From: Pseudomonas sp. PDNC002 | Lineage (GTDB): Bacteria; Pseudomonadota; Gammaproteobacteria; Pseudomonadales; Pseudomonadaceae | Direction: 5' to 3' | Assembly: GCF_016919445.1 (NCBI RefSeq) | Contig: NZ_CP070356.1 | Coordinates: 3,575,502-3,599,501 of the forward strand | Length of the DNA: 24,000 nucleotides | Shown: in pieces, positions 8,085-16,920 of the stretch | Layout: each line of letters starts with the position of its first letter | How positions within the stretch are numbered: position 1 is the first letter of the stretch | Notes under the pieces: generated by a model | The model's database searches: none | The model's input: the letters and a program-made list of their open reading frames with translations, nothing else | What the model was told of the DNA's origin: nothing | Position numbers and translations under genes: made by a program

Positions 8085-8264
8085 ATGATCGAGATACCGA
8101 TAACGTCGTGTGTGGCAGCCGTGTCTGCGATTGCGCTGACTGGTCTGTCCGTGAATGTTTCCAGGTTGCGGATGCGCTATCGCGTCGGCCTTGGTCACGG
8201 TGGTCAGAAGGCGCTGCAGCTGGCCGTGGCGCCGGTCAATCTTTTCCTCAAAATTATCAATTAA
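8085..8264 (+). pseudogene. Truncated YecN-like MAPEG-family membrane protein (only the N-terminal ~50 residues are recognisable)
   Basis: ATG 8085 is preceded by AGGGGG. The translation is MIEIPITSCVAAVSAIALTGLSVNVSRLRMRYRVGLGHGGQKALQLAV... This matches the YecN/MAPEG N-terminus (..VVRLRMQYRV.YGDGG...LQ.AIR.HGN..EY). The expected HGNxxEYxP motif and the last ~70 aa are missing. The frame runs into the G-free tract and stops at 8262-8264. Confidence 0.6.
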
Positions 8265-8877
8265 ATTTCATAACTATCGACTCTATAAATAATTTTTAAC
8301 TTCATTTTAATTATTGTCTTTCTTATTTTTATTTTTCCATCCTAATTCCATTTACATCCATCTATATTCTCATCATTTAAATATATATTTATAAAATCAT
8401 CATCTCAACCATACAACACCTCTACCTTATAATCCATCATTCTCCCAATATATTCTATTTAAAGATTATATATTTATATTCCTACTCTCTAAACCTATTT
8501 TTCTTTAACATCTATATTTCATAACACAATTTCATTTAATAACTATATATTAATTCCCCAATTATTTATATAATAACTTTTACAATATCTACATTATTCA
8601 AATTATACTCATATCCAATTTCATCCCTCATCAAAATTAACATTTCATAAATACATACTCATTATTCTTTTATTCATAATAACCCCACCCAAAAAAATAA
8701 AACCAAAAAAAAACCTCCCCAAAAAAAAAAAACACCCCCAAAAAAAAAAAAAAATATAAATAAATATTTTCAAATTAAATTTTTATATATATATACAATT
8801 ATACCCTATATATATATATCCCCCCCCCCCCCCCCCCCCTATATAAATATATATACCCCCCCCACCCCCCCCCAATT
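8238..8877. other. G-depleted AT/C low-complexity tract with terminal homopolymer runs (artefact or anomalous insertion)
   Basis: I count only three G on the + strand between 8238 and 8877 (at 8279, 8316 and 8464). The flanks are typical high-GC sequence. Runs: A9 8705-8713, A12 8721-8732, A15 8740-8754, (TA)n around 8787-8819, C20 8820-8839, C8 8856-8863, C9 8865-8873. The tract contains no ORF, no terminal inverted repeats and no periodic repeat unit. Confidence 0.9.
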
Positions 8878-9226
8878 CGTATTTTCGTCGAGCGACGCAA
8901 CTGACCCTGCCACGCCGCGCCCCGGAGAGCGCTCCAGACACCTCGCACCCGAGAGCCCTCCCGAGTGCGAGCCCTCTCCGGATACACGAAGAACCTCCGC
9001 TGCCTACCTGAAAATCCGGCGACAGGCCGGGTTTCGCCCATCCGCGCCGCCTGGGCCGTTCGATGCGCCTGGGGCGGCGATTCGCGATGTCACGCCGAGT
9101 TGTTCAGGGCCCGCTTTGCCTGCGGGTCGCGCAGTGGCGCATGCCTTGCTCAAACCGCTGTGATACTTGCCGTTCCCACTCGCTCAGCATGGGCTTTCTA
9201 CACGGCGCTCAGGTTGACGAAATCCA

Positions 9227-9309
9227 TACAGATTTACATCCCTTGGTTGATTGATTAGGTTCGCCTTGTACCGCAGTTGATCAATATATTGATGGATAAT
9301 CAATGTGTT
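9227..9309. promoter_or_regulatory. AT-rich promoter region of the DUF1302 gene, with motifs shared with the 13816-13895 divergent promoter
   Basis: TACAGATTTAC (9227-9237), palindrome TTGATCAA (9277-9284), ATATATTGAT (9284-9293), inverted repeat ATTGAT-N5-ATCAAT (9288-9304) and ATCAATGTGTT (9299-9309). The same words recur at 13816-13895. Confidence 0.45.
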
Positions 9310-9398
9310 GATCGGCGACTTCGCCCAGGGCTGCTGTGCTGTGCCGGTCATCGAGAACCGGATTCTGCTCCCATAAGCACAATAACAAGGTGGAATAC

Positions 9399-11171
9399 GT
9401 GGAAAGAACCTTCTACCGCCGGCGCCTGCCCGTCGCGCTCGGCAGCCTCGTTCCTGCTCTTCTCGCATCCAGCGTCCAGGCGGTGACGTTCGAGGTCGGG
9501 GAGATCCAGGGGCAGTTCGACTCGTCCCTCTCCGTTGGCCAGAGCTGGGCGATGAATGATCCGAACCCGAACTTCATCAGCAAGGCCAATGGCGGACGCG
9601 GTGACTCCCAGACCACCGACGACGGCCGCTTGAATTTCAGGAAGGGCGAGACATTCTCGAAGATCTTCAAGGGGACGCACGACCTGGAATTGAAGTACGG
9701 CGACTGGGGGGCCTTCCTGCGAGGGAAGTACTGGTATGACTTCGAGCTGAAGGACGGGCACCAGCACCTCTACGACATCCAGGACAACGGCCGTGATCAG
9801 GCGGCGCGCTCCTCGGGTGCGCAGTTCCTCGACGCCTTCGTCTACCGCAACTACGACCTGGCCGGGCAGCCCGGCTCGGTCAGGCTGGGCAAGCAGGTCG
9901 TGAGCTGGGGGGGCAGTACCTTCATCCAGGGTGGCATCAACAGCATCAACCCGCTGGATGCCAACGCGCTGCGGCGTCCGGGTTCCGAGTTGAAGGAGGG
10001 GCTGATCCCGGTGCAGATGATCTATCTGCAACAGAGCCTCAGCGATGCCGTCAGCGTGGAAGGTTTCTACCAGCTGAAATGGCAGGGCACCGTGGCCGAT
10101 AACTGCGGGACCTTCTTCGCCAGCTCCGATCTTCCAGCCAAGGGCTGCGACGACCGCTACGTGCTCCAGGGCAAGGACATCAAGCCCGGCGCCTCGGACA
10201 ACAGCGGGCAGAACGGCAACACCATTTTCCTGCCGCGCGGACCGGACCGCGAACCGCGCGATGGCGGGCAGTACGGCCTGGCGCTGCGGTGGTTCGTGCC
10301 GGAGCTCAACGACACCGAGTTGAGCCTCTACTGGATGAATTATCACAGCCGCATGCCGATCGGCAGTTCGACGATGACCACCGCCAACCCGTTTACCGCG
10401 CCGCGTTTCGGTGCCGCGTCGGCGACCTATTTCCTGGAGTACCCCGAGGACATCCGCCTCTATGGCCTGAGCTTCAGCACCAACATCGCCGGCGCGGCTG
10501 TGGAAGGCGAGATCAGTCACCGACCGAATATGCCGCTGGGCTTCGACGACCTGATCTACGCCACGCTGCGCCTGTCGCCCGTCGTGCCGACGCCCATCGA
10601 GAACTCCGGTATCCCCGGCGACACCATCCATGGCTACAAGCGGGTGCCGTTCACCCAGGTCCAGACCACCGTCACCAAGACCTTCGACCAGGTCATGGGC
10701 GCGAGCCGCCTGACGCTGGTTGGCGAGGTTGGCTACAACCACATCTCCGGGATCGACGACGGCACCTACGGCCACCTGCGCTATGGCCGAGCCAGTCCTT
10801 TCGGGCCCGGCGAGTATTACGGCGCCAACGGCAATGACCTCTGCACCACGCTGCTCAGCGGTCGCCCCGAGTACTGCAACAACGACGGCTTCTACACCCG
10901 CAATTCCTGGGGATACCGCCTGCGCTCGGCGCTCACCTACAACGGCGTCATCGGCGGACTCGACCTCACGCCGAACCTGGCCTGGTCCCATGACGTCCAG
11001 GGTTACGGGACGAACTTCACCGAGGGCGGCAAGGCCGTCAGCGTCGGGCTGAACGCCGTTTACCTGTCCAAGTACAACGCCAGCATCAGTTACACCGATT
11101 TCTTCGGTGGCAAATACACCACCAACACCGATCGCGACTTCCTGAGCGTCAGTTTCGGCGTCAGCTTCTGA
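9399..11171 (+). CDS. DUF1302-family outer-membrane beta-barrel protein
   Basis: The track ORF (9336) starts at a GTG with no RBS. The GTG at 9399 follows AAGGTGG by 5 nt and gives a signal peptide (VERTFYRRRLPVALGSLVPALLASSVQA/VTFEVG). DUF1302 hallmark motifs are present: DDGRLNF.KGE, LGKQVVSWGGSTFIQGGINSINPLDANALRRPGSELKEGLIPV, and the C-terminal DRDFLSVSFGVSF. Confidence 0.88.
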   Translation: MERTFYRRRLPVALGSLVPALLASSVQAVTFEVGEIQGQFDSSLSVGQSWAMNDPNPNFISKANGGRGDSQTTDDGRLNFRKGETFSKIFKGTHDLELKYGDWGAFLRGKYWYDFELKDGHQHLYDIQDNGRDQAARSSGAQFLDAFVYRNYDLAGQPGSVRLGKQVVSWGGSTFIQGGINSINPLDANALRRPGSELKEGLIPVQMIYLQQSLSDAVSVEGFYQLKWQGTVADNCGTFFASSDLPAKGCDDRYVLQGKDIKPGASDNSGQNGNTIFLPRGPDREPRDGGQYGLALRWFVPELNDTELSLYWMNYHSRMPIGSSTMTTANPFTAPRFGAASATYFLEYPEDIRLYGLSFSTNIAGAAVEGEISHRPNMPLGFDDLIYATLRLSPVVPTPIENSGIPGDTIHGYKRVPFTQVQTTVTKTFDQVMGASRLTLVGEVGYNHISGIDDGTYGHLRYGRASPFGPGEYYGANGNDLCTTLLSGRPEYCNNDGFYTRNSWGYRLRSALTYNGVIGGLDLTPNLAWSHDVQGYGTNFTEGGKAVSVGLNAVYLSKYNASISYTDFFGGKYTTNTDRDFLSVSFGVSF

Positions 11172-11181
11172 GGAACAAACA

Positions 11182-12540
11182 ATGAGAAATACGATTCCGG
11201 CAGCGGGCCTGCTGTCTTTCTGCCTGTCTTTCATCAGCCCTGTTTCCCTGGCCGCGGTCGATGCGGCCAAGGCGGCAGAGCTGGGCTCCATACTGACGCC
11301 GGTCGGCGCCGAGCGTGCGGGCAACGAGGCGGGAACGATCCCGGCCTGGACGGGCGGGTTGGCGCCTGACGCGGGGCAGGTCAGGGACGGTACACACGGC
11401 GATCCTTTCGCCGGCGAGAAGCCGCTGTTCGTCATTACCCCGGCTACCCTCGAGCGCTACAAGGAGCGCCTGAGTCCCGGCCAGCTCGCGCTGTTCCAGC
11501 GTTACCCGGACACCTACCGCATCCCGGTGTACGCCAGCCATCGCACGGCGGCCTGGCCGGACAGCGCGTATGCCGCCGCCAAGCGCAACGCCACCAGCAC
11601 AGAGCTGGTCGCCGGTGGTAATGGCCTGAAGGACTACCAGGCGCCGCTGGCATTCCCGATTCCGCGCAACGGCCTGGAAGTGATCTGGAACCACATTACC
11701 CGTTACCGGGGTGGCAGCTTCGATCGCGAGACCAGCAGCTACCTGGTGACGCCCAACGGCGACTACTCCTGGAAGACCGAGCGTGACCGCCTGGCCTACA
11801 GCAACCAGCTCACCGACTACGACCCGGAGCGCTCGAAGAACATCCTCTACTACTTCACCTCGCTGAATATCGCACCGGCGCGGGATGTGGGCGATGTGCT
11901 GCTGGTCCACGAGACCCTGGACCAGGTCGCCGAGCCGAGAATGGCCTGGCAGTACAACGCCGGCCAGCGCCGGGTGCGTCGCGCACCCCAGGTGGCCTAT
12001 GACAGCCCCGGCCCCGGCAACCTGCGCACCAACGACCAACTGGACATGTTCAACGGCTCGCCCGATCGCTACGACTGGCAGCTGGTGGGCAAGCGCGAGC
12101 TCTACGTTCCCTACAACAGCTTCCGCCTTGCCGACCCGGCCAACAGCCCGGATAAACTGGTGCAGAAGGGGCACATCAACCAGAACCTGACGCGCTACGA
12201 ACTGCACCGCGTCTGGGAGGTGATCGCCACCCTGAAGCCGGGCCAGCGCCACGTCTATGCCAAGCGGCACCTGTACATCGACGAGGATACCTGGACCATT
12301 CTCGAAGCCGATCACTACGACAATCGCGGGACGCTGTGGCGCGTTTCCGAGAACCACACGCTGCCTTTCTACGACCAGAAAGTGGTGATCAGCGCAGGGG
12401 AGATGACCTACGACCTGACCTCCGGGCGCTATCTCGCCAACGGCATGTTCAACCAGATCAAGGATGCTTACCGCTTCGGCCTCAAGGCCAAGACTTCCGA
12501 CTTCACGCCCGCCGCCCTGCGCACCATCGGCATTCGCTGA
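11182..12540 (+). CDS. DUF1329-family (LolA-like / outer-membrane lipoprotein-sorting-like) periplasmic protein
   Basis: 452 aa. Signal peptide (LSFISPVSLA/AVD). DUF1329 hallmarks: LTPVGAERAGNEAGTIPAWTGGL, FPIPRNGLEVIWNHITRYRG, ELYVPYNSF. GAGGA RBS. It starts 10 nt after the DUF1302 stop. Confidence 0.88.
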   Translation: MRNTIPAAGLLSFCLSFISPVSLAAVDAAKAAELGSILTPVGAERAGNEAGTIPAWTGGLAPDAGQVRDGTHGDPFAGEKPLFVITPATLERYKERLSPGQLALFQRYPDTYRIPVYASHRTAAWPDSAYAAAKRNATSTELVAGGNGLKDYQAPLAFPIPRNGLEVIWNHITRYRGGSFDRETSSYLVTPNGDYSWKTERDRLAYSNQLTDYDPERSKNILYYFTSLNIAPARDVGDVLLVHETLDQVAEPRMAWQYNAGQRRVRRAPQVAYDSPGPGNLRTNDQLDMFNGSPDRYDWQLVGKRELYVPYNSFRLADPANSPDKLVQKGHINQNLTRYELHRVWEVIATLKPGQRHVYAKRHLYIDEDTWTILEADHYDNRGTLWRVSENHTLPFYDQKVVISAGEMTYDLTSGRYLANGMFNQIKDAYRFGLKAKTSDFTPAALRTIGIR

Positions 12541-12566
12541 AGCCAGGAAAGCAGCGGCAGGGAAGC

Positions 12567-12600
12567 AGGCCCGCCTCGTGAGAGGCGGGCCTTGTCGTTT
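12567..12600. terminator. Bidirectional hairpin terminator between convergent genes
   Basis: AGGCCCGCCTC (12567-12577), loop GTGA, GAGGCGGGCCT (12582-12592), followed by TGTCGTTT. This is an 11-bp perfect GC-rich stem between the DUF1329 stop (12540) and the regulator stop (12600). Confidence 0.6.
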
Positions 12601-13790
12601 CAGTCCGGCAGGGTGCCGGTGTAGCGGGCGCGCGGACGCAGCAGCGGGTACTGGTGATACTGCTCGCTGGCATGGGCAATCCAGCCAATGGCACGGCCGA
12701 CGCCGGCGAGGGCGATCTCCTGGCCCTGCAGGCCCAGTTTGCGGCCGACGAAGGTCAGCAGGAGGATGAAGTCCATGGGCTGCCCGGTCAGCTCCTCGGC
12801 GACCGTGGCTGCCTCCAGCAGGCTGCGGAACTCCGCATCCTTGGCGAACAGCCGATGCAGGCTCTGCAGCAGGCAGGTCGCGCGGGGATCGCTTTCGCCG
12901 TGCTGATTGGAGCCAAAGCCCAGGATGGCGCCATCCTCGCGGAAGCGCTGGACGATCGGGTCCGCCGGATGGCGGGCGGTGCAAATGTCGTCCAGCAGGC
13001 GTGCCACCGACTCGTTCCTGCCGTAGGCCAGGTGCCGGCCCCGTGACGTGGCGATGCCCACAATCGCGGCGTAGTAGGGCGTTATGCCGGTGTTCGCGGC
13101 CGCCCTCACGCTGTAGGTGGTGGGGTCGAGTTCATGGTCGATGGACAGGATCAACACCTGGCGGATCAGGTCGGCCAGCGCCTCGTTCACCCCCAGCGAT
13201 TCGGCGATGAACCGATGCAGGGGACGGTCATCGGGCACAGCTGCGCCGACCAGCAACGCAGCGAACCAGCGAACCACATCGACGCCGGTGCGGGCATAGC
13301 CTTCCACCGAGAGGTCGTGGGCGCGCGGGTTCTCACGCTCCAGCAGCGGGAACAGAGCGATCAGTTTTTCTCCCACGGCCAGGTCGCCCAGCGCCTTGAG
13401 CAGGGCGCCGGTGCCTTTCGGACGACGCGGCAGCGGCGCGTCGAAGACGCCTTCCGCCTGCCACATCAGTTCCGCTACCGCCTCGACGCTGGCGCTCGCG
13501 GCCAGTTGCGTCACGTCGTGCCCCCGGTAGTACAGCCCCTTGTCGGTCAGCAGCGTGATCGAGCTCTGCGCGCCAACGCGGGGAGCGTCGGTTCCGGATC
13601 CTGCTGTTGGCTTGAGCTTGCGCAGGCGTTCGATATCCGCCGCCCAGTACTTACGGCTGCGCGAGCCCTCGACCTTGAGCGAGCGGATGTTCTTCCGGCT
13701 GACGTAGGCATAAAGCGTCGGAAGGCTGATGCCGAGCGCGCTGGCGGCCTCGTCCGCGCTGAGGTAGAGATCGTCTTCTGGGGTGGACAT
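12600..13790 (-). CDS. Excisionase/MerR-type HTH fused to a citrate-synthase-like domain (putative ligand-sensing transcriptional regulator)
   Basis: 396 aa. The N-terminus LSADEAASALGISLPTLYAYVSRKNIRSLK is an HTH_17/excisionase-type DNA-binding motif. Residues ~75-396 align by eye with small citrate synthases (SITLLTDKGLYYRGHDVTQLA; LILSIDHELDPTTYSVRAAANTG; GFGSNQHGESDPRA; GRAIGWIAHASEQY; RPRARYTG). The catalytic GFGH motif reads GFGS. ATG 13790 has a GAGG RBS. Confidence 0.8.
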   Translation of the reverse strand: MSTPEDDLYLSADEAASALGISLPTLYAYVSRKNIRSLKVEGSRSRKYWAADIERLRKLKPTAGSGTDAPRVGAQSSITLLTDKGLYYRGHDVTQLAASASVEAVAELMWQAEGVFDAPLPRRPKGTGALLKALGDLAVGEKLIALFPLLERENPRAHDLSVEGYARTGVDVVRWFAALLVGAAVPDDRPLHRFIAESLGVNEALADLIRQVLILSIDHELDPTTYSVRAAANTGITPYYAAIVGIATSRGRHLAYGRNESVARLLDDICTARHPADPIVQRFREDGAILGFGSNQHGESDPRATCLLQSLHRLFAKDAEFRSLLEAATVAEELTGQPMDFILLLTFVGRKLGLQGQEIALAGVGRAIGWIAHASEQYHQYPLLRPRARYTGTLPD

Positions 13791-13815
13791 GGCGGCCTCG
13801 GATTGATGAATTTCG

Positions 13816-13895
13816 TACAGATTTACTATTTATGGGGGCCTATATATCTTGCTGTCAACATCAACAGAATACATATATTGATCAATGTATGTGTT
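13816..13895. promoter_or_regulatory. Divergent AT-rich promoter/operator region between the HTH-citrate-synthase-like regulator and the DUF1446 operon
   Basis: The 123-bp intergenic region (13791-13913) contains TACAGATTTAC (13816-13826), ATATATTGAT (13873-13882), the 10-bp perfect palindrome ATTGATCAAT (13877-13886) and ATCAATGT..TGTGTT (13881-13895). These are the same words as in 9227-9309. Confidence 0.5.
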
Positions 13896-13913
13896 CGCCA
13901 GACGGAGACACGC

Positions 13914-15278
13914 ATGGAAATTCGTGTTCTGGCGCCCAATGGCGCCATAGGCACCGGCTTCAAGGAAAGTTCGTTCGAGCGCGGGGTGTCGCTTGCCCCC
14001 CATGTGATTGCCTGTGACGCCGGTTCGACCGATTCGGGCCCGGCTTACCTGGGCAGCGGCAAGGCGCGGCTTTCCCGCGAAGCTTGCAAGCGCGACCTGC
14101 GCCTGCTCCTGCTGGCGCGTGACCGCTTGGGCGTTCCGCTGATCGTCGGGTCCTGCGGCACCAGCGGGAGGGACGCAGGGGTCAACTGGATGGCGGAGAT
14201 CGCGCTGGAGATCGCGGACGAGGAGGGGCTCAACTTCCGCCTCGCGCTGATCTACTCCGATCAGGACGGCGAGTACCTGAAGCAGCGCCTGGCCGATGGA
14301 CGCATTCAGGCGTTGCACCCGGCGCCGCCGCTCGACGAGCAGGTCATCGAACGCAGCCATGTGGTCGGCATGATGGGAACCGAGGCGCTGTCCGAAGCAC
14401 TGGATCAGGGCGCCGAGGTGATCCTGGCGGGCCGTGCCAGCGACTCGGCGCTGTTCGCCGTGGTGCCCGAGCGCCTCGGCGCCGATCGCGGGTTGGTCTG
14501 GCACGCGGCGAAGACCATCGAGTGCGGCGCGGCCTGCTGTGTCACGCCGGCTGCCGATGGCCTGATCGCGTATATCCGCGAGGACCATTTCGAGATCGAG
14601 CCGCTGGACCCGCAGGCGCGCGTGACGCCCTTGTCCATCGCCGCGCACACCCTCTACGAGAACGCCAACCCCTTCCTGCTCACCGAGCCGGCCGGCATCG
14701 TGGACACCGAGCACGCGGTATATACCGCGACGAGCGAGCGCAGCGTGCGGGTGAGCGGTTCGAAGTTCCATCCGGCACAACGCTACAGCATCAAGCTGGA
14801 AGGTTCCGAGCCGGTGGGCTTCCAGTCGGTGATCATCGGCGGTATCCGCGACCCGAAAATCTTCCTGGGCCTGGATCGGTTGATCCCGATGGCGAAGCAG
14901 TATTTCCAGCAGCGCGTCGCCCAGTTGTTCGGAGGCCGGCTTGGCCCCGAGGACTACGACATCAGCTTCCGCAGTTATGGTCGCGGCGCGGTGATGGGTG
15001 AACTGGAGGTCGAGCGCGACAGCGTGCCGATCGAAGTCGGGGTGCTGATCACCGTCACGGCACCGACGCAGGAGCTGGCGAGTAAGATCGCCACCTTCGT
15101 CAGCCATGTCAGCGCGCACCTGCCGGTGCCCGGCTACGAAGGCATCATCAGCACCATCGCCTATCCGTTCTCGCCGCCGTACCTGGAACGAGGCGCCGTC
15201 TACCGGTTCAGTCTCAACCACGTGCTGTTCCCCGACTCGCCCAGCGAAATGTTCCGTCGCAAGATGATCGAGGTGTAA
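13914..15278 (+). CDS. DUF1446 / AtuA-family protein (acyclic terpene utilisation AtuA N-terminal domain homologue), function unknown
   Basis: The track ORF (13134..15278) is open far upstream. The ATG at 13914 follows GGAGA by 5 nt and gives MEIRVLAPNGAIGTGF...ACDAGSTDSGPAYLG...IVGSCGTSG..., which is typical of DUF1446. The upstream part of the track ORF is the antisense of the regulator gene. Confidence 0.8.
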   Translation: MEIRVLAPNGAIGTGFKESSFERGVSLAPHVIACDAGSTDSGPAYLGSGKARLSREACKRDLRLLLLARDRLGVPLIVGSCGTSGRDAGVNWMAEIALEIADEEGLNFRLALIYSDQDGEYLKQRLADGRIQALHPAPPLDEQVIERSHVVGMMGTEALSEALDQGAEVILAGRASDSALFAVVPERLGADRGLVWHAAKTIECGAACCVTPAADGLIAYIREDHFEIEPLDPQARVTPLSIAAHTLYENANPFLLTEPAGIVDTEHAVYTATSERSVRVSGSKFHPAQRYSIKLEGSEPVGFQSVIIGGIRDPKIFLGLDRLIPMAKQYFQQRVAQLFGGRLGPEDYDISFRSYGRGAVMGELEVERDSVPIEVGVLITVTAPTQELASKIATFVSHVSAHLPVPGYEGIISTIAYPFSPPYLERGAVYRFSLNHVLFPDSPSEMFRRKMIEV

Positions 15279-15281
15279 TCC

Positions 15282-15593
15282 ATGACTCAACTCTTCGAAC
15301 TCTGCAGCCTGATCCGCTCCAAGAACGCCGGCCCGTTCATGCTCACCTTCGACCTGATGTTCGCATCGGCGGAGAGTTACCAGCGCGCCAAGCGGACCCA
15401 GCCCATCACCCGTGAGCTGATCTCGCGCATTTATCGCCAGCCGGAGGACGACATCACGCTGGTTTACCACGACGCGGCACAGGCGATAAAAATCTCCTTT
15501 CCCAGGCCGGTCTTCCAGGGCGAGCTGCACGACAGCGATTGCTACGGCGGTCAGCAATACGTGCCGCTGATGGGCATCACGGTCGCCGAATGA
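15282..15593 (+). CDS. DUF4387 protein (equivalent to the AtuA C-terminal ferredoxin-like domain)
   Basis: 103 aa: MTQLFELCSLIRSKNAGPFMLTFDLMF...AIKISFPRP. It starts 3 nt after the DUF1446 stop, with GAGGTG RBS. In full-length AtuA proteins this domain is fused to DUF1446, so the two genes read as a split AtuA. Confidence 0.75.
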   Translation: MTQLFELCSLIRSKNAGPFMLTFDLMFASAESYQRAKRTQPITRELISRIYRQPEDDITLVYHDAAQAIKISFPRPVFQGELHDSDCYGGQQYVPLMGITVAE

Positions 15594-15630
15594 TCACCTT
15601 CGATTCGCACAACAAGAATAAGGAATGAAC

Positions 15631-16920
15631 ATGGCCTGGGTCGGTTTTGCCATGGTGTTGACCTTCATGTACCTGATCATGAGCCAGCGGCTGTCCGCGG
15701 TCGTGGCGCTCATCCTGGTACCGGTCTGCTTTGCGGTTGCCTGCGGCTTCGGGCCGCAAACCGGAGGCATGGTGCTGGACGGCGTGCGTCAGCTCGCGCC
15801 CACGGCGCTGATGCTGATGTTTGCCATCCTGTTCTTCTCGATCATGTATGACGCCGGGTTATTCGAGCCGGCGGTGCGCCGGATCGTGCGGGCCGTGGGC
15901 AACGATCCGCTGCGGGTCAGCGTGGGAACCGCGGCCTTGTCGGCACTCATCTCCCTGGATGGCGACGGCTCGACCACGGTCCTGGTGGTCGTCACGTCCA
16001 TGCTGCCGGTCTATCGGCGCCTGGGCATGAACCCGCTGATTATCGCGACGCTGGTGTTGCTGACCAATACATCCATCAACCTGGTGCCCTGGGGCGGGCC
16101 CACGGCACGCGCGGCGAGCGCGCTGCACGTGGATGCCATGCAGGTCTTCCAGGGACTGGTTCCGACCATGATCGCCGGCATCGCTTTCGCCTTCCTGGCG
16201 GCGGTCTGGTTCGGCCTCCGGGAGCGCCGGCGCCTGGGATGGACGCCGCAGTCAGGGGAGGCGAATCTTTCCGAGGAGATCCTCGCCGAGGTCCGCGAAA
16301 CCCATCGCCCGAAGCTGTTCTGGGTCAACCTGGCGCTGACCATCGGCCTGGTGTTGTCCATGGCGCTCGGGCTGGGGCCGCTGCCGGTGCTGATGATGGT
16401 CGCCTTCGCCCTGGCATTGCTGATCAATTACCCGAGGCTGGATCAGCAAAAGGCGCGGATTGCCGCGCATGCCGACAATGTCCTCAACGTGCTGGCGCTG
16501 ATATTCGCCGCGGGCGCCTTCACCGGCATCCTGGCAGGCACCGGGATGGTGGACGCCATGTCGGGCAAGTTCCTGGCCGTGGTTCCCGAAAGCGCGGGCC
16601 CGTACCTGAGCGTCATCACGGCCTTTGCCAGCGTTCCGTTCACCTTCTTCATGTCCAACGACGCCTTCTACTTCGGCATCCTGCCGGTGCTGGCGAAAAG
16701 CGCTGCGCAATATGGCGTCGACCCGGTGCTGGTGGCCCGCGCATCGGTCCTCGGCCTGCCGGTCCATGCGCTCAGCCCGCTGGTGGCGGCGGGGTACCTG
16801 ATGAGCGGGTTGCTGAAGGTCGAGGTCGGCGCGCTCCAGCGGTTCTCCCTGAAATGGGCGCTTGCCAGCTCGCTGGTACTGATCGCCGCGGCCCTGGCAA
16901 GCGGCGCCATCCTGGCCTAG
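15631..16920 (+). CDS. CitMHS-family (citrate-divalent-metal:H+ symporter family) transporter
   Basis: About 429 aa, polytopic. The N-terminus MAWVGFAMVLTFMYLIMSQRLSAVVALILVPVCFAV and the internal LPVYRRLGMNPLIIATLVLL and NDAFYFGILPVL match the CitM/CitH family. The track start (15625) has AAGGA immediately abutting it. The ATG at 15631 has proper 6-nt spacing. Confidence 0.85.
   Translation: MAWVGFAMVLTFMYLIMSQRLSAVVALILVPVCFAVACGFGPQTGGMVLDGVRQLAPTALMLMFAILFFSIMYDAGLFEPAVRRIVRAVGNDPLRVSVGTAALSALISLDGDGSTTVLVVVTSMLPVYRRLGMNPLIIATLVLLTNTSINLVPWGGPTARAASALHVDAMQVFQGLVPTMIAGIAFAFLAAVWFGLRERRRLGWTPQSGEANLSEEILAEVRETHRPKLFWVNLALTIGLVLSMALGLGPLPVLMMVAFALALLINYPRLDQQKARIAAHADNVLNVLALIFAAGAFTGILAGTGMVDAMSGKFLAVVPESAGPYLSVITAFASVPFTFFMSNDAFYFGILPVLAKSAAQYGVDPVLVARASVLGLPVHALSPLVAAGYLMSGLLKVEVGALQRFSLKWALASSLVLIAAALASGAILA

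Follow-up and report, generated by a model that had tools for sequence, protein, structure and literature searches.

A six-gene cassette of Pseudomonas sp. PDNC002 encodes a putative transcriptional regulator with a citrate synthase-like domain that lacks the catalytic residues

The window analysed here, that is, the whole stretch of DNA under study, comprises 24,000 nucleotides (nt) of Pseudomonas sp. PDNC002 (contig NZ_CP070356.1, positions 3,575,502 to 3,599,501 of the forward strand). Its central feature is a gene for a 396-residue protein, hereafter the regulator, in which a putative DNA-binding helix-turn-helix (HTH) is joined to a domain resembling citrate synthase (CS). The gene belongs to a cassette of six (Table 1). 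A pair coding for DUF1302 and DUF1329 proteins (9399-12540) is convergent with it, and a run of three genes coding for AtuA-like, DUF4387 and CitMHS proteins (13914-16920) is divergent from it. An earlier note on this DNA had described the regulator as divergent from a citrate-family transporter operon, and this is confirmed, the operon being that of the AtuA (DUF1446), DUF4387 and CitMHS genes.

Among the homologues of the regulator are proteins of equal length and 92% identity; the exact protein has no record in the contig collection. The protein matches the Pfam family Citrate_synt with 112 bits against a cutoff of 27, and PF12728 and PF00285 occur together in nearly all homologues among the 120 matches listed. 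An AlphaFold2 model built from 118 sequences (mean pLDDT 88.8, pTM 0.79) begins with a winged HTH of beta-alpha-alpha-beta-beta-alpha topology (helices at residues 12-19, 23-32 and 50-59, strands at 37-39 and 46-49). The recognition helix, LPTLYAYVSRKNIRS, is nearly invariant family-wide in the HTH alignment of both clades defined below, and residues 25-33 of the regulator (TLYAYVSRK) match its family form TLYAYVSR[KG]. After a flexible linker the model continues as an all-helical domain; the best PDB matches found with Foldseek were PrpC (3o8j) and citrate synthases (1a59, 1iom), with TM scores of 0.68-0.74. Comparison with the 92% identical orthologue at a related locus, L084, gave a ratio of nonsynonymous to synonymous substitution (dN/dS) of 0.075 overall. 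The HTH (0.08) and the CS-like domain (0.06) have similarly low values, and that of the linker is much higher (0.38). Both domains are under strong purifying selection. The fusion of an excisionase- or MerR-type HTH to a full CS fold, as the earlier note had it, is thus borne out by the open reading frame (ORF), Pfam, the structural model and the Foldseek matches, the comparison of a predicted structure with CS having been among the checks that the note proposed. The winged HTH is of the MerR/HTH_17 superfamily and is common to the regulator and the MerR-family proteins, but in the model it is followed by the disordered linker (residues 60-78) and then the CS fold, not by the coiled-coil dimerisation helix of canonical MerR; dimerisation would come from the CS fold instead.

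When one genome per GTDB species was scanned, at least 586 species proved to have a relative of the regulator. An exhaustive phmmer search at E <= 1e-30 yielded 275 clusters at 50% identity, and in almost all of the listed ones the match extends over the HTH as well. A neighbour-joining tree built on the CS domain unites the 74 fusion proteins in a single clade without the enzymes, which indicates that the fusion had a single origin. Within this group the relatives of the regulator (clade A, 12 sequences) are monophyletic. The fusions here called clade B (Bradyrhizobium, Reyranella, Burkholderia, Chloroflexota, Acidobacteriota and others) have the same architecture and a near-identical recognition helix. 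By these comparisons the regulator belongs to an uncharacterised HTH_17-Citrate_synt family; a full-text literature search found no experimentally characterised HTH-citrate-synthase regulator, as the earlier note had supposed. One representative protein (P0121, 792 residues) contains two tandem full-length HTH-CS units, seen as two matched stretches (43% identity), and is either a tandem duplication fused in one ORF or an artefact of assembly or gene calling.

The active site was examined by aligning E. coli GltA and PrpC with 73 family members in MAFFT, with the clade B motif PNVDF as anchor for the Asp column, and the following statements on the pocket rest on alignment to known CS residues. 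The catalytic triad, which is H264, H305 and D362 in E. coli and H274, H320 and D375 in the pig enzyme, is not in place in the regulator. The first His column is occupied by L254 or A255, in a loop where GPxHGG has been rebuilt as GRHLAYGR with a one-residue insertion; the nearby H253 is Arg in most orthologues. The second His is replaced by S294, GFGH having become GFGS, and the Asp column holds I342 (PMDFIL, as against PNVDF in the nearest triad-bearing relatives). Members of clade A have A, I or S at this column, while the position of D340, the Asp of 'PMDF', is D, A, E or S among orthologues, so that the catalytic Asp is unconserved in either alignment. The loss of the His residues is conserved across clade A, with L, I, S, T or V at the first column and S, T, Q, N or P at the second. 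Among 131 representatives at 50% identity, the approximately 50 nearest to the regulator have all lost the triad and 70 keep H, H and D.

The ligands of the carboxylate groups have fared differently. H219 (of DHE), R303 (DPR), R366 (GRxxGW) and R385 (RPR) are kept in 72-73 of the 73 loci, and the tetrad in 112 of the 131 representatives. These residues are the equivalents of pig H238, R329, R401 and R421', the last of which reaches the site from the partner subunit. Two elements that align with coenzyme A (CoA) contacts of the pig and E. coli structures have changed: the regulator lacks the 7-residue loop that precedes NVDF, and another residue stands in place of the Arg/Lys that follows GFGH. 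Basic residues have been gained on the former acetyl-CoA side in a G-R-x4-G-R loop. The CS-like domain of the regulator is, by this alignment, most likely a catalytically dead citrate synthase in which the carboxylate-binding residues have been kept. The earlier note had read the GFGH His as Ser and the GPxHGG motif as degenerate with its His displaced, and was right on both; of the carboxylate-binding elements that it listed as retained, those of DPR, GRxxGW and RPR are indeed invariant, as is the His of DHE, but the Asp of 'PMDF' is not.

It might be argued that the CS-like domain of a DNA-binding regulator is merely a dimerisation scaffold or a protein-protein sensor, for example one that contacts the CmlAB-like lyase described below. 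CS is obligately dimeric, operators of palindromic or repeated form call for a dimeric scaffold, and the catalytic loops have been rebuilt and are modelled with lower confidence. A scaffold would nevertheless have no need of the four carboxylate ligands, which persist while their catalytic neighbours drift, and the dN/dS of this domain is as low as that of the HTH. We regard the scaffold explanation as unlikely.

Curated family models point the same way as the residues. The best NCBIfam CS model, TIGR01800, gives the regulator 85.7 bits against a cutoff of 421.3; for the remaining CS and PrpC models it falls 4-8 fold or more below the cutoffs, and its scores with the models for citryl-CoA lyase are even lower. 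Although it has the fold of citrate and 2-methylcitrate synthases (GltA, PrpC; PF00285) over about 320 residues and the same carboxylate ligands, the regulator differs from them in lacking the catalytic His pair, in its unconserved Asp, in the deleted CoA-contact loop, in its N-terminal winged HTH and in scoring below every CS/PrpC cutoff. Judged by its triad and by these cutoffs, it is not a citrate synthase. Source annotations do call it 'citrate synthase' or 'citrate/2-methylcitrate synthase', and the strong Pfam Citrate_synt match could be cited in favour of an active synthase with an N-terminal extension. Such a reading would have to accommodate the missing His residues, the unconserved Asp, equivalog scores this far under their cutoffs and the absence of the CoA-contact elements, and the supposed extension is a conserved winged HTH with a matching operator element nearby. 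We consider it very improbable.

The triad is retained in most of the family, that is, in clade B, whose members keep GPRHGG, GFGH and PNVDF; the two His and the Asp are present at 62, 61 and 62 of the 73 loci, respectively. Pseudoenzyme status is therefore derived in clade A and is not a trait of the fusion architecture. A pseudoenzyme sensor-regulator, as proposed in the earlier note, accordingly holds for clade A, where the triad is lost, and fails for the architecture at large; we rejected the generalisation that all HTH-CS fusions are pseudoenzymes. Clade B also differs from the regulator in its neighbourhood: the divergent gene is not AtuA/DUF4387/CitMHS but, at 37 loci, that of a CS-family enzyme which is full-length and bears the triad and, at 9 loci, that of a family III CoA-transferase. 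The CS-family paralogue opposite clade B regulators (e.g. L035:8784-9986, L014:8795-9949) carries GPLHGGAP, GFGHRIY and NVEFY, a Glu replacing the catalytic Asp in the last of these. A clade B regulator standing beside a paralogue of its own sensor domain could possibly form a bifunctional enzyme-regulator system.

A candidate operator, O1 (GTAAATCTGTACGAAATTCATCAAT on the regulator strand), precedes the regulator gene, its 3' end lying 11 nt and its 5' end 36 nt before the ATG. It contains a near-palindrome, AATTTCGTACAGATTT (13809-13824), and when read towards the cmlA-like gene it overlaps a conserved -35-like TTTACT. The same element recurs as O2 (GTTGACGAAATCCATACAGATTTAC, palindrome at 9220-9235) upstream of the DUF1302-DUF1329 operon and is kept at the orthologous position in loci L084, L004, L005 and L086; further copies in relatives precede citMHS or atuA operons. 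The 25-nt consensus of the operator is GTAAATCTGTAYGnAWTTCRTCAAY. The window contains two copies of its core, TACAGATTTAC (9227 and 13816), as against an expectation of 0.06. With no more than one mismatch the core is confined to intergenic regions of the cassette, at clade-A loci of Pseudomonas and at one locus of Bradyrhizobium, and 1.30 Mb of clade-B loci contain 0 such matches. The core lies within a 16-nt near-palindrome, AAATCnGTACnGATTT, which was found at 12 or more of 14 matches ten times, always in these same regions and never in clade B.

Clade B possesses a homologous element, which like that of the regulator is found about 40 nt upstream. Its consensus, gTCAATcTTGATTa..ttAatcAat, has the same 25-nt frame as O1. 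TTGAT-N6/7-ATCAA is present within -200 to +20 of the regulator start at 60 of 69 clade-B loci, a density of 4.07 per kb against 0.0054 per kb elsewhere. For the family as a whole, the regular expression T[CA]AA[TC][ACT]T[TG][GT]A[TC] is matched on the regulator strand between -250 and +20 of the start at 69 of 80 loci (4.24 per kb, as against 0.034 per kb elsewhere), and its position in clade A is -38 to -49 relative to that start. The 25 nt of GTAAATCTGTACGAAATTCATCAAT span the ends GT[AC]AATCT and ATCAAT, equal to the clade-B consensus, and the elements of the two clades are by this comparison variants of one frame. An operator frame common to both clades fits the near-invariant recognition helix. 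We had considered that TACAGATTTAC might belong to another regulator, the TTGATCAAT palindrome being the true operator; the idea was dropped because both follow a single 25-nt frame, placed at a constant distance from the regulator start. The comparative evidence is strong that the regulator binds the 25-nt element and regulates itself and the DUF1302 operon. In clade B, an extremely conserved form, TTGATCAATCTTGATTAnnnnAATCAATATG, precedes the start of the regulator gene by about 25-60 nt (for example at L035, L024 and L043); it spans Proteobacteria, Chloroflexota, Acidobacteriota, Gemmatimonadota and Myxococcota and often reaches into the start codon.

The earlier note had directed attention to a palindrome in the shared promoter. 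Such a palindrome, GAATACATATATTGATCAATGTATGTGTTC, does exist between O1 and the cmlA-like start, but it is conserved only in the closest relatives (L084 and L004), and O1 is preferred to it as the operator; it is possibly an auxiliary operator or an element of the 5' untranslated region. Downstream of O2 lies a cluster of TTGAT/ATCAA half-sites, GTTGATCAATATATTGATGGATAATCAATGTGTTGATC, these pentamers being found 42 times per kb in the two cassette promoters and 1.1 times per kb in the remainder of the window. This cluster, too, is conserved only in the closest relatives, and its members may be auxiliary sites. When eight orthologous promoters were read by eye, the pattern TTTAC[AT]-N17-TA[GT]nnT emerged, with a -35 hexamer that overlaps the 3' end of the 25-nt element. 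On these hexamers the palindrome of the element would centre near -40, which is a weaker point than the location of the element itself. A MerR-style operator within the promoter spacer was unsupported: the hexamers read by eye, which a sigma-70 scan did not confirm, give 17-bp spacers, and the operator overlaps the -35. Unlike in canonical MerR systems, the element was not seen inside a 19-20-bp spacer. No riboswitch or other RNA element in the leaders of the window was matched in Rfam, and the window has no tRNA.

Table 1. Features of the regulator gene, its cassette and the intergenic elements (window coordinates).
Feature	Coordinates	Strand	Evidence
Regulator gene, 396 aa: HTH_17/MerR-type winged HTH, linker, probably catalytically dead citrate-synthase-like domain	12600..13790	-	ORF, Pfam/NCBIfam, homologues, AlphaFold2 model
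Winged helix-turn-helix, residues 5-59	13614..13778	-	AlphaFold2 model, HTH_17 25.7 bits, both-clade HTH alignment, dN/dS 0.08
Flexible linker, residues 60-78	13557..13613	-	pLDDT <50 for residues 60-69; dN/dS 0.38
Candidate citrate-synthase-like sensor domain, residues 79-396	12603..13556	-	Alignments, Foldseek, NCBIfam scores
Candidate operator O1, GTAAATCTGTACGAAATTCATCAAT	13802..13826	-	25-nt family frame
Candidate operator O2, GTTGACGAAATCCATACAGATTTAC, upstream of DUF1302-DUF1329 operon	9213..9237	+	Same element as O1
Second palindrome, GAATACATATATTGATCAATGTATGTGTTC, between O1 and cmlA-like start	13867..13896		16-nt arms, 88% complementary
TTGAT/ATCAA half-site cluster, GTTGATCAATATATTGATGGATAATCAATGTGTTGATC, downstream of O2	9276..9313		Resembles clade-B TTGAT-N6/7-ATCAA
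Six-gene cassette	9204..16919		blastn against L084 and L085
AtuA/DUF1446-family gene, CmlA homologue	13914..15278	+	Pfam AtuA; PDB 9erq_A 3e-89
DUF4387 gene, CmlB homologue	15282..15593	+	Pfam DUF4387 114 bits; PDB 9erq_B 4e-23
CitMHS-family citrate(-metal):proton symporter, putative inner-membrane uptake step	15625..16920	+	TIGR00784, Pfam CitMHS
DUF1302 outer-membrane protein	9399..11171	+	Pfam DUF1302 569 bits
DUF1329 LolA-like outer-membrane lipoprotein, DUF1302 partner	11182..12540	+	Pfam DUF1329 480 bits
GC-rich hairpin between convergent DUF1329 and regulator genes	12567..12592		11-pair stem, 9 GC pairs

The 7.7-kb cassette is 86% nt-identical to its counterpart in another Pseudomonas genome, with unrelated flanks (blastn against loci L084 and L085). 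It behaves like a unit of horizontal exchange, and no mobility genes are visible in it. Its occurrence in differing genomic contexts, a near-threshold match of the regulator to the NCBIfam model 'excise' and the naming of relatives as 'Xis' in two sources might suggest that the regulator serves a mobile element as excisionase or recombination directionality factor. There is, however, no integrase or transposase in the flanks of the cassette within the window and none consistently near homologues, and the protein carries a conserved 320-residue domain of metabolic fold; this explanation we find scarcely credible. At L084 a DDE transposase lies a few kb from the cassette and interrupts a Peptidase_S15 gene.

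The regulator stays linked to the same genes. AtuA and DUF4387 are found near it at 10 of the 11 clade-A loci of the genome scan and at all five other loci looked up by protein. Of those 10, 7 also have CitMHS, and 4 have DUF1302, DUF1329 or both. P. aeruginosa has the cassette genes in shuffled order, and in Cupriavidus there are two regulator copies, one of them divergent from AtuA/DUF4387. Caulobacter has a TonB-dependent receptor as the outer-membrane partner. In Alloalcanivorax OprD takes this place, and genes for PrpD, a 2-hydroxyacid dehydrogenase and an aconitase-like pair lie beside it. Judged from this synteny, the linkage is conserved across several bacterial classes despite the shuffled order. 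DUF1302 and DUF1329 are outer-membrane proteins whose role has been described as unknown (10.1101/072470; 10.1101/2020.07.04.188060); their exchange for porins or TonB receptors in orthologous cassettes suggests a role in substrate uptake. Two of the related loci, L008 (8114-9791, 11316-12982) and L026 (4266-5901, 12705-14395), have two divergent AtuA/DUF4387 pairs flanking the clade-A regulator. The paired copies are about 35-45% identical to each other, which suggests two lyase specificities under one regulator.

Several smaller features of the cassette deserve mention. The ORF of the DUF1302 protein opens at GTG 9336; the 590-residue orthologue at L084 and an upstream AAGGTGG point to GTG 9399 as the start, and a sequence resembling a signal peptide follows this codon. 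The CitMHS protein scores 516 bits against TIGR00784 (cutoff 260). The hairpin between the convergent genes is likely a bidirectional terminator. Just past CitMHS, L084 (6697-6858) and L085 (6698-6892) contain a second, short DUF4387-like fragment. At the nt level it is 72% identical to the DUF4387 gene of the window (15445-15583), and it is probably what remains of a lyase subunit that had been duplicated. Outside the cassette, 641 nt at 8240-8880, abutting a small ORF that starts at 8086, contain only 0.6% G (A 38%, T 37%, C 24%) within DNA of 65% GC. This stretch includes the G-free runs 8317-8463 and 8465-8878, 20 C at about 8821-8840, and poly-A and (TA)n tracts. It has the look of an artefact, or of an insertion that is corrupted or foreign, and not of native Pseudomonas DNA.

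The tandem genes at 13914-15593 are homologous to both subunits of the CmlAB citramalate lyase (PDB 9erq/9evf). The AtuA-like protein aligns over residues 3-439 with chain A of 9erq (3e-89, 303 bits, about 40% identity over 425 columns), named 'Citramalate lyase, subunit A (cmlA) / AtuA family protein' by the depositors, and the DUF4387 protein over residues 4-99 with chain B, 'subunit B (cmlB)' (4e-23). Pfam and NCBIfam, despite this homology, label AtuA/DUF1446 and DUF4387 as acyclic-terpene-utilisation proteins or proteins of unknown function. Two homologous subunits in what the earlier note called a DUF1446 operon sharpen the guess at a ligand. The reaction type of CmlAB, in which a 2-hydroxy-2-substituted succinate yields a 2-oxoacid and acetate, fits a citrate-like substrate, and we infer citrate, citramalate, 2-methylcitrate and hydroxycitrate as the candidates. 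That the ligand is citrate itself is possible, though on the doubtful side. The pair in the window differs from the Raoultella planticola Cml, with about 40% identity and a linkage to CitMHS and a CS-like sensor and not to methylaspartate or mesaconate genes; an unexplained DUF1446 gene adjoining methylaspartate ammonia-lyase was noted earlier (PMC4682846). Cleavage of citramalate is predicted for the pair by homology only, and its substrate may differ.

That the regulator senses a CoA thioester (acetyl-CoA, citryl-CoA or citramalyl-CoA) and not the free acid would suit the ancestral fold, which binds acetyl-CoA and citryl-CoA, and the divergent CS-family enzyme or family III CoA-transferase of many clade B loci. 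We think this improbable, a little more so than the scaffold explanation: the CoA-contact loop is deleted, the Arg/Lys after GFGH is replaced, and the cassette in the window has no CoA ligase or CoA transferase. Furthermore, the lyase homologue Cml is reported to cleave citramalate directly to pyruvate and acetate, that is, as the free acid (bioRxiv 10.64898/2026.01.16.699985).

We consider it likely that the regulator is an autoregulated, ligand-responsive transcription factor for the cassette, which would take up and cleave a citrate-like hydroxy-polycarboxylate. As the earlier note had suggested, an HTH on a degenerate CS fold makes a plausible sensor-regulator, and the residue pattern, the purifying selection, the synteny and the recurring operator element support this candidate. 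In the proposed mechanism, the winged helix of HTH_17/MerR type would bind the 25-nt operators before the regulator gene and before DUF1302, the former of which overlaps the divergent cmlA-like promoter, and a dimer of the CS-like domain would present two HTHs to each; the retention of R385, whose CS equivalent reaches the partner's site, argues for a dimer. The oxaloacetate/citrate site keeps its carboxylate clamp (H219, R303, R366, R385), which would bind a citrate-like hydroxy-di- or tricarboxylate. With the Asp and both His lost and the basic G-R-x4-G-R gained, a product-like tricarboxylate or 2-hydroxy acid might be held stably and not turned over. Ligand-driven domain closure is a hallmark of CS, and closure of this type on the ligand could reposition the HTHs and change occupancy of the operator. 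The switch would turn on uptake (DUF1302/DUF1329, CitMHS) and cleavage, in which the CmlAB-like, CoA-independent 2-hydroxyacid lyase would split the imported acid into a 2-oxoacid and acetate. The predicted regulon thus comprises DUF1302/DUF1329, CitMHS, the CmlAB-like lyase and the regulator itself. DNA binding, dimerisation, the class of ligand (citrate, citramalate or a close analogue) and the sign of control, as repressor or activator, are points that we infer.

Several observations weigh against this interpretation. The N-terminus of the regulator falls short of every HTH model cutoff, with 25.7 bits for HTH_17 (cutoff 27), 20.8 for MerR_1 (21.6) and 27.1 for TIGR01764 'excise' (28.8), so that of the two Pfam families the earlier note had expected, Citrate_synt was recovered and HTH_17 was not. 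The presence of PF12728 in nearly all listed homologues indicates that the HTH is marginal in this sequence and not in the family. The model is less confident (pLDDT about 65-70) in the loops that have replaced the catalytic His loops, and the triad is kept in most of the family, so that the fusion alone is no sign of a pseudoenzyme. Several non-Pseudomonas clade-A loci lack the strict Pseudomonas-type core and have the variant TCAATCTTGA instead. The promoter hexamers read by eye are below the threshold of a sigma-70 scan, which proposes 13852-13879, a site overlapping the second palindrome; this conflict leaves the position of the operator relative to the transcription start uncertain, and hence the choice between repression and activation. 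As to the ligand, the identity between the CmlA homologue and the enzyme of known structure is only about 40%, so that no compound can be named from it, and pseudomonads need no lyase for citrate use. Support for sequence-specific DNA binding under the control of a small molecule is indirect and consists of the conserved operator, the invariant pocket residues and the conserved synteny.

Regulators built on enzyme folds have precedents among the one-component systems, namely MocR/GabR (aminotransferase), HutC/UTRA (chorismate-lyase) and ROK/NagC (sugar kinase), and among the bifunctional proteins PutA and BirA. The MocR, UTRA and ROK types follow the same logic as that proposed here: an HTH is joined to the fold of a metabolic enzyme, which reports a metabolite of the pathway, and the protein usually regulates its own gene and is encoded beside the target operon. 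The regulator, for its part, has an HTH of the HTH_17/excisionase type and not of the GntR or ROK type. The full-text literature search found no description of a regulator with the citrate synthase fold as sensor. If the interpretation is confirmed, citrate synthase would join the short list of metabolic folds recruited as transcription-factor sensors, and a family that would display both catalytically intact and dead stages would be a good model for the transition from enzyme to sensor.

For annotation, the 'citrate synthase' labels appear to be wrong for clade A, and the capacity for the tricarboxylic acid and methylcitrate cycles would be overstated in hundreds of genomes, including those of some P. 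aeruginosa strains. The predicted regulon is compact, has a defined operator and is directly testable, and it could supply a tricarboxylate biosensor. It would also place in one specific module of uptake and cleavage both the CmlAB lyase family, solved only recently, and the outer-membrane pair DUF1302/DUF1329, which has long lacked an explanation. A bolder and rather unlikely extension is that the HTH-CS fusions constitute an unrecognised, phylum-spanning class of 'trigger enzymes'. Clade B proteins would in that case be active as well as operator-binding, autoregulating a paralogous CS or CoA-transferase gene, and the clade of the regulator would be the end-point, a pure sensor that switches on an undescribed CoA-independent pathway (DUF1302/DUF1329, CitMHS, CmlAB-like). 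If true, this would give DUF1302/DUF1329 a first concrete role in substrate uptake.

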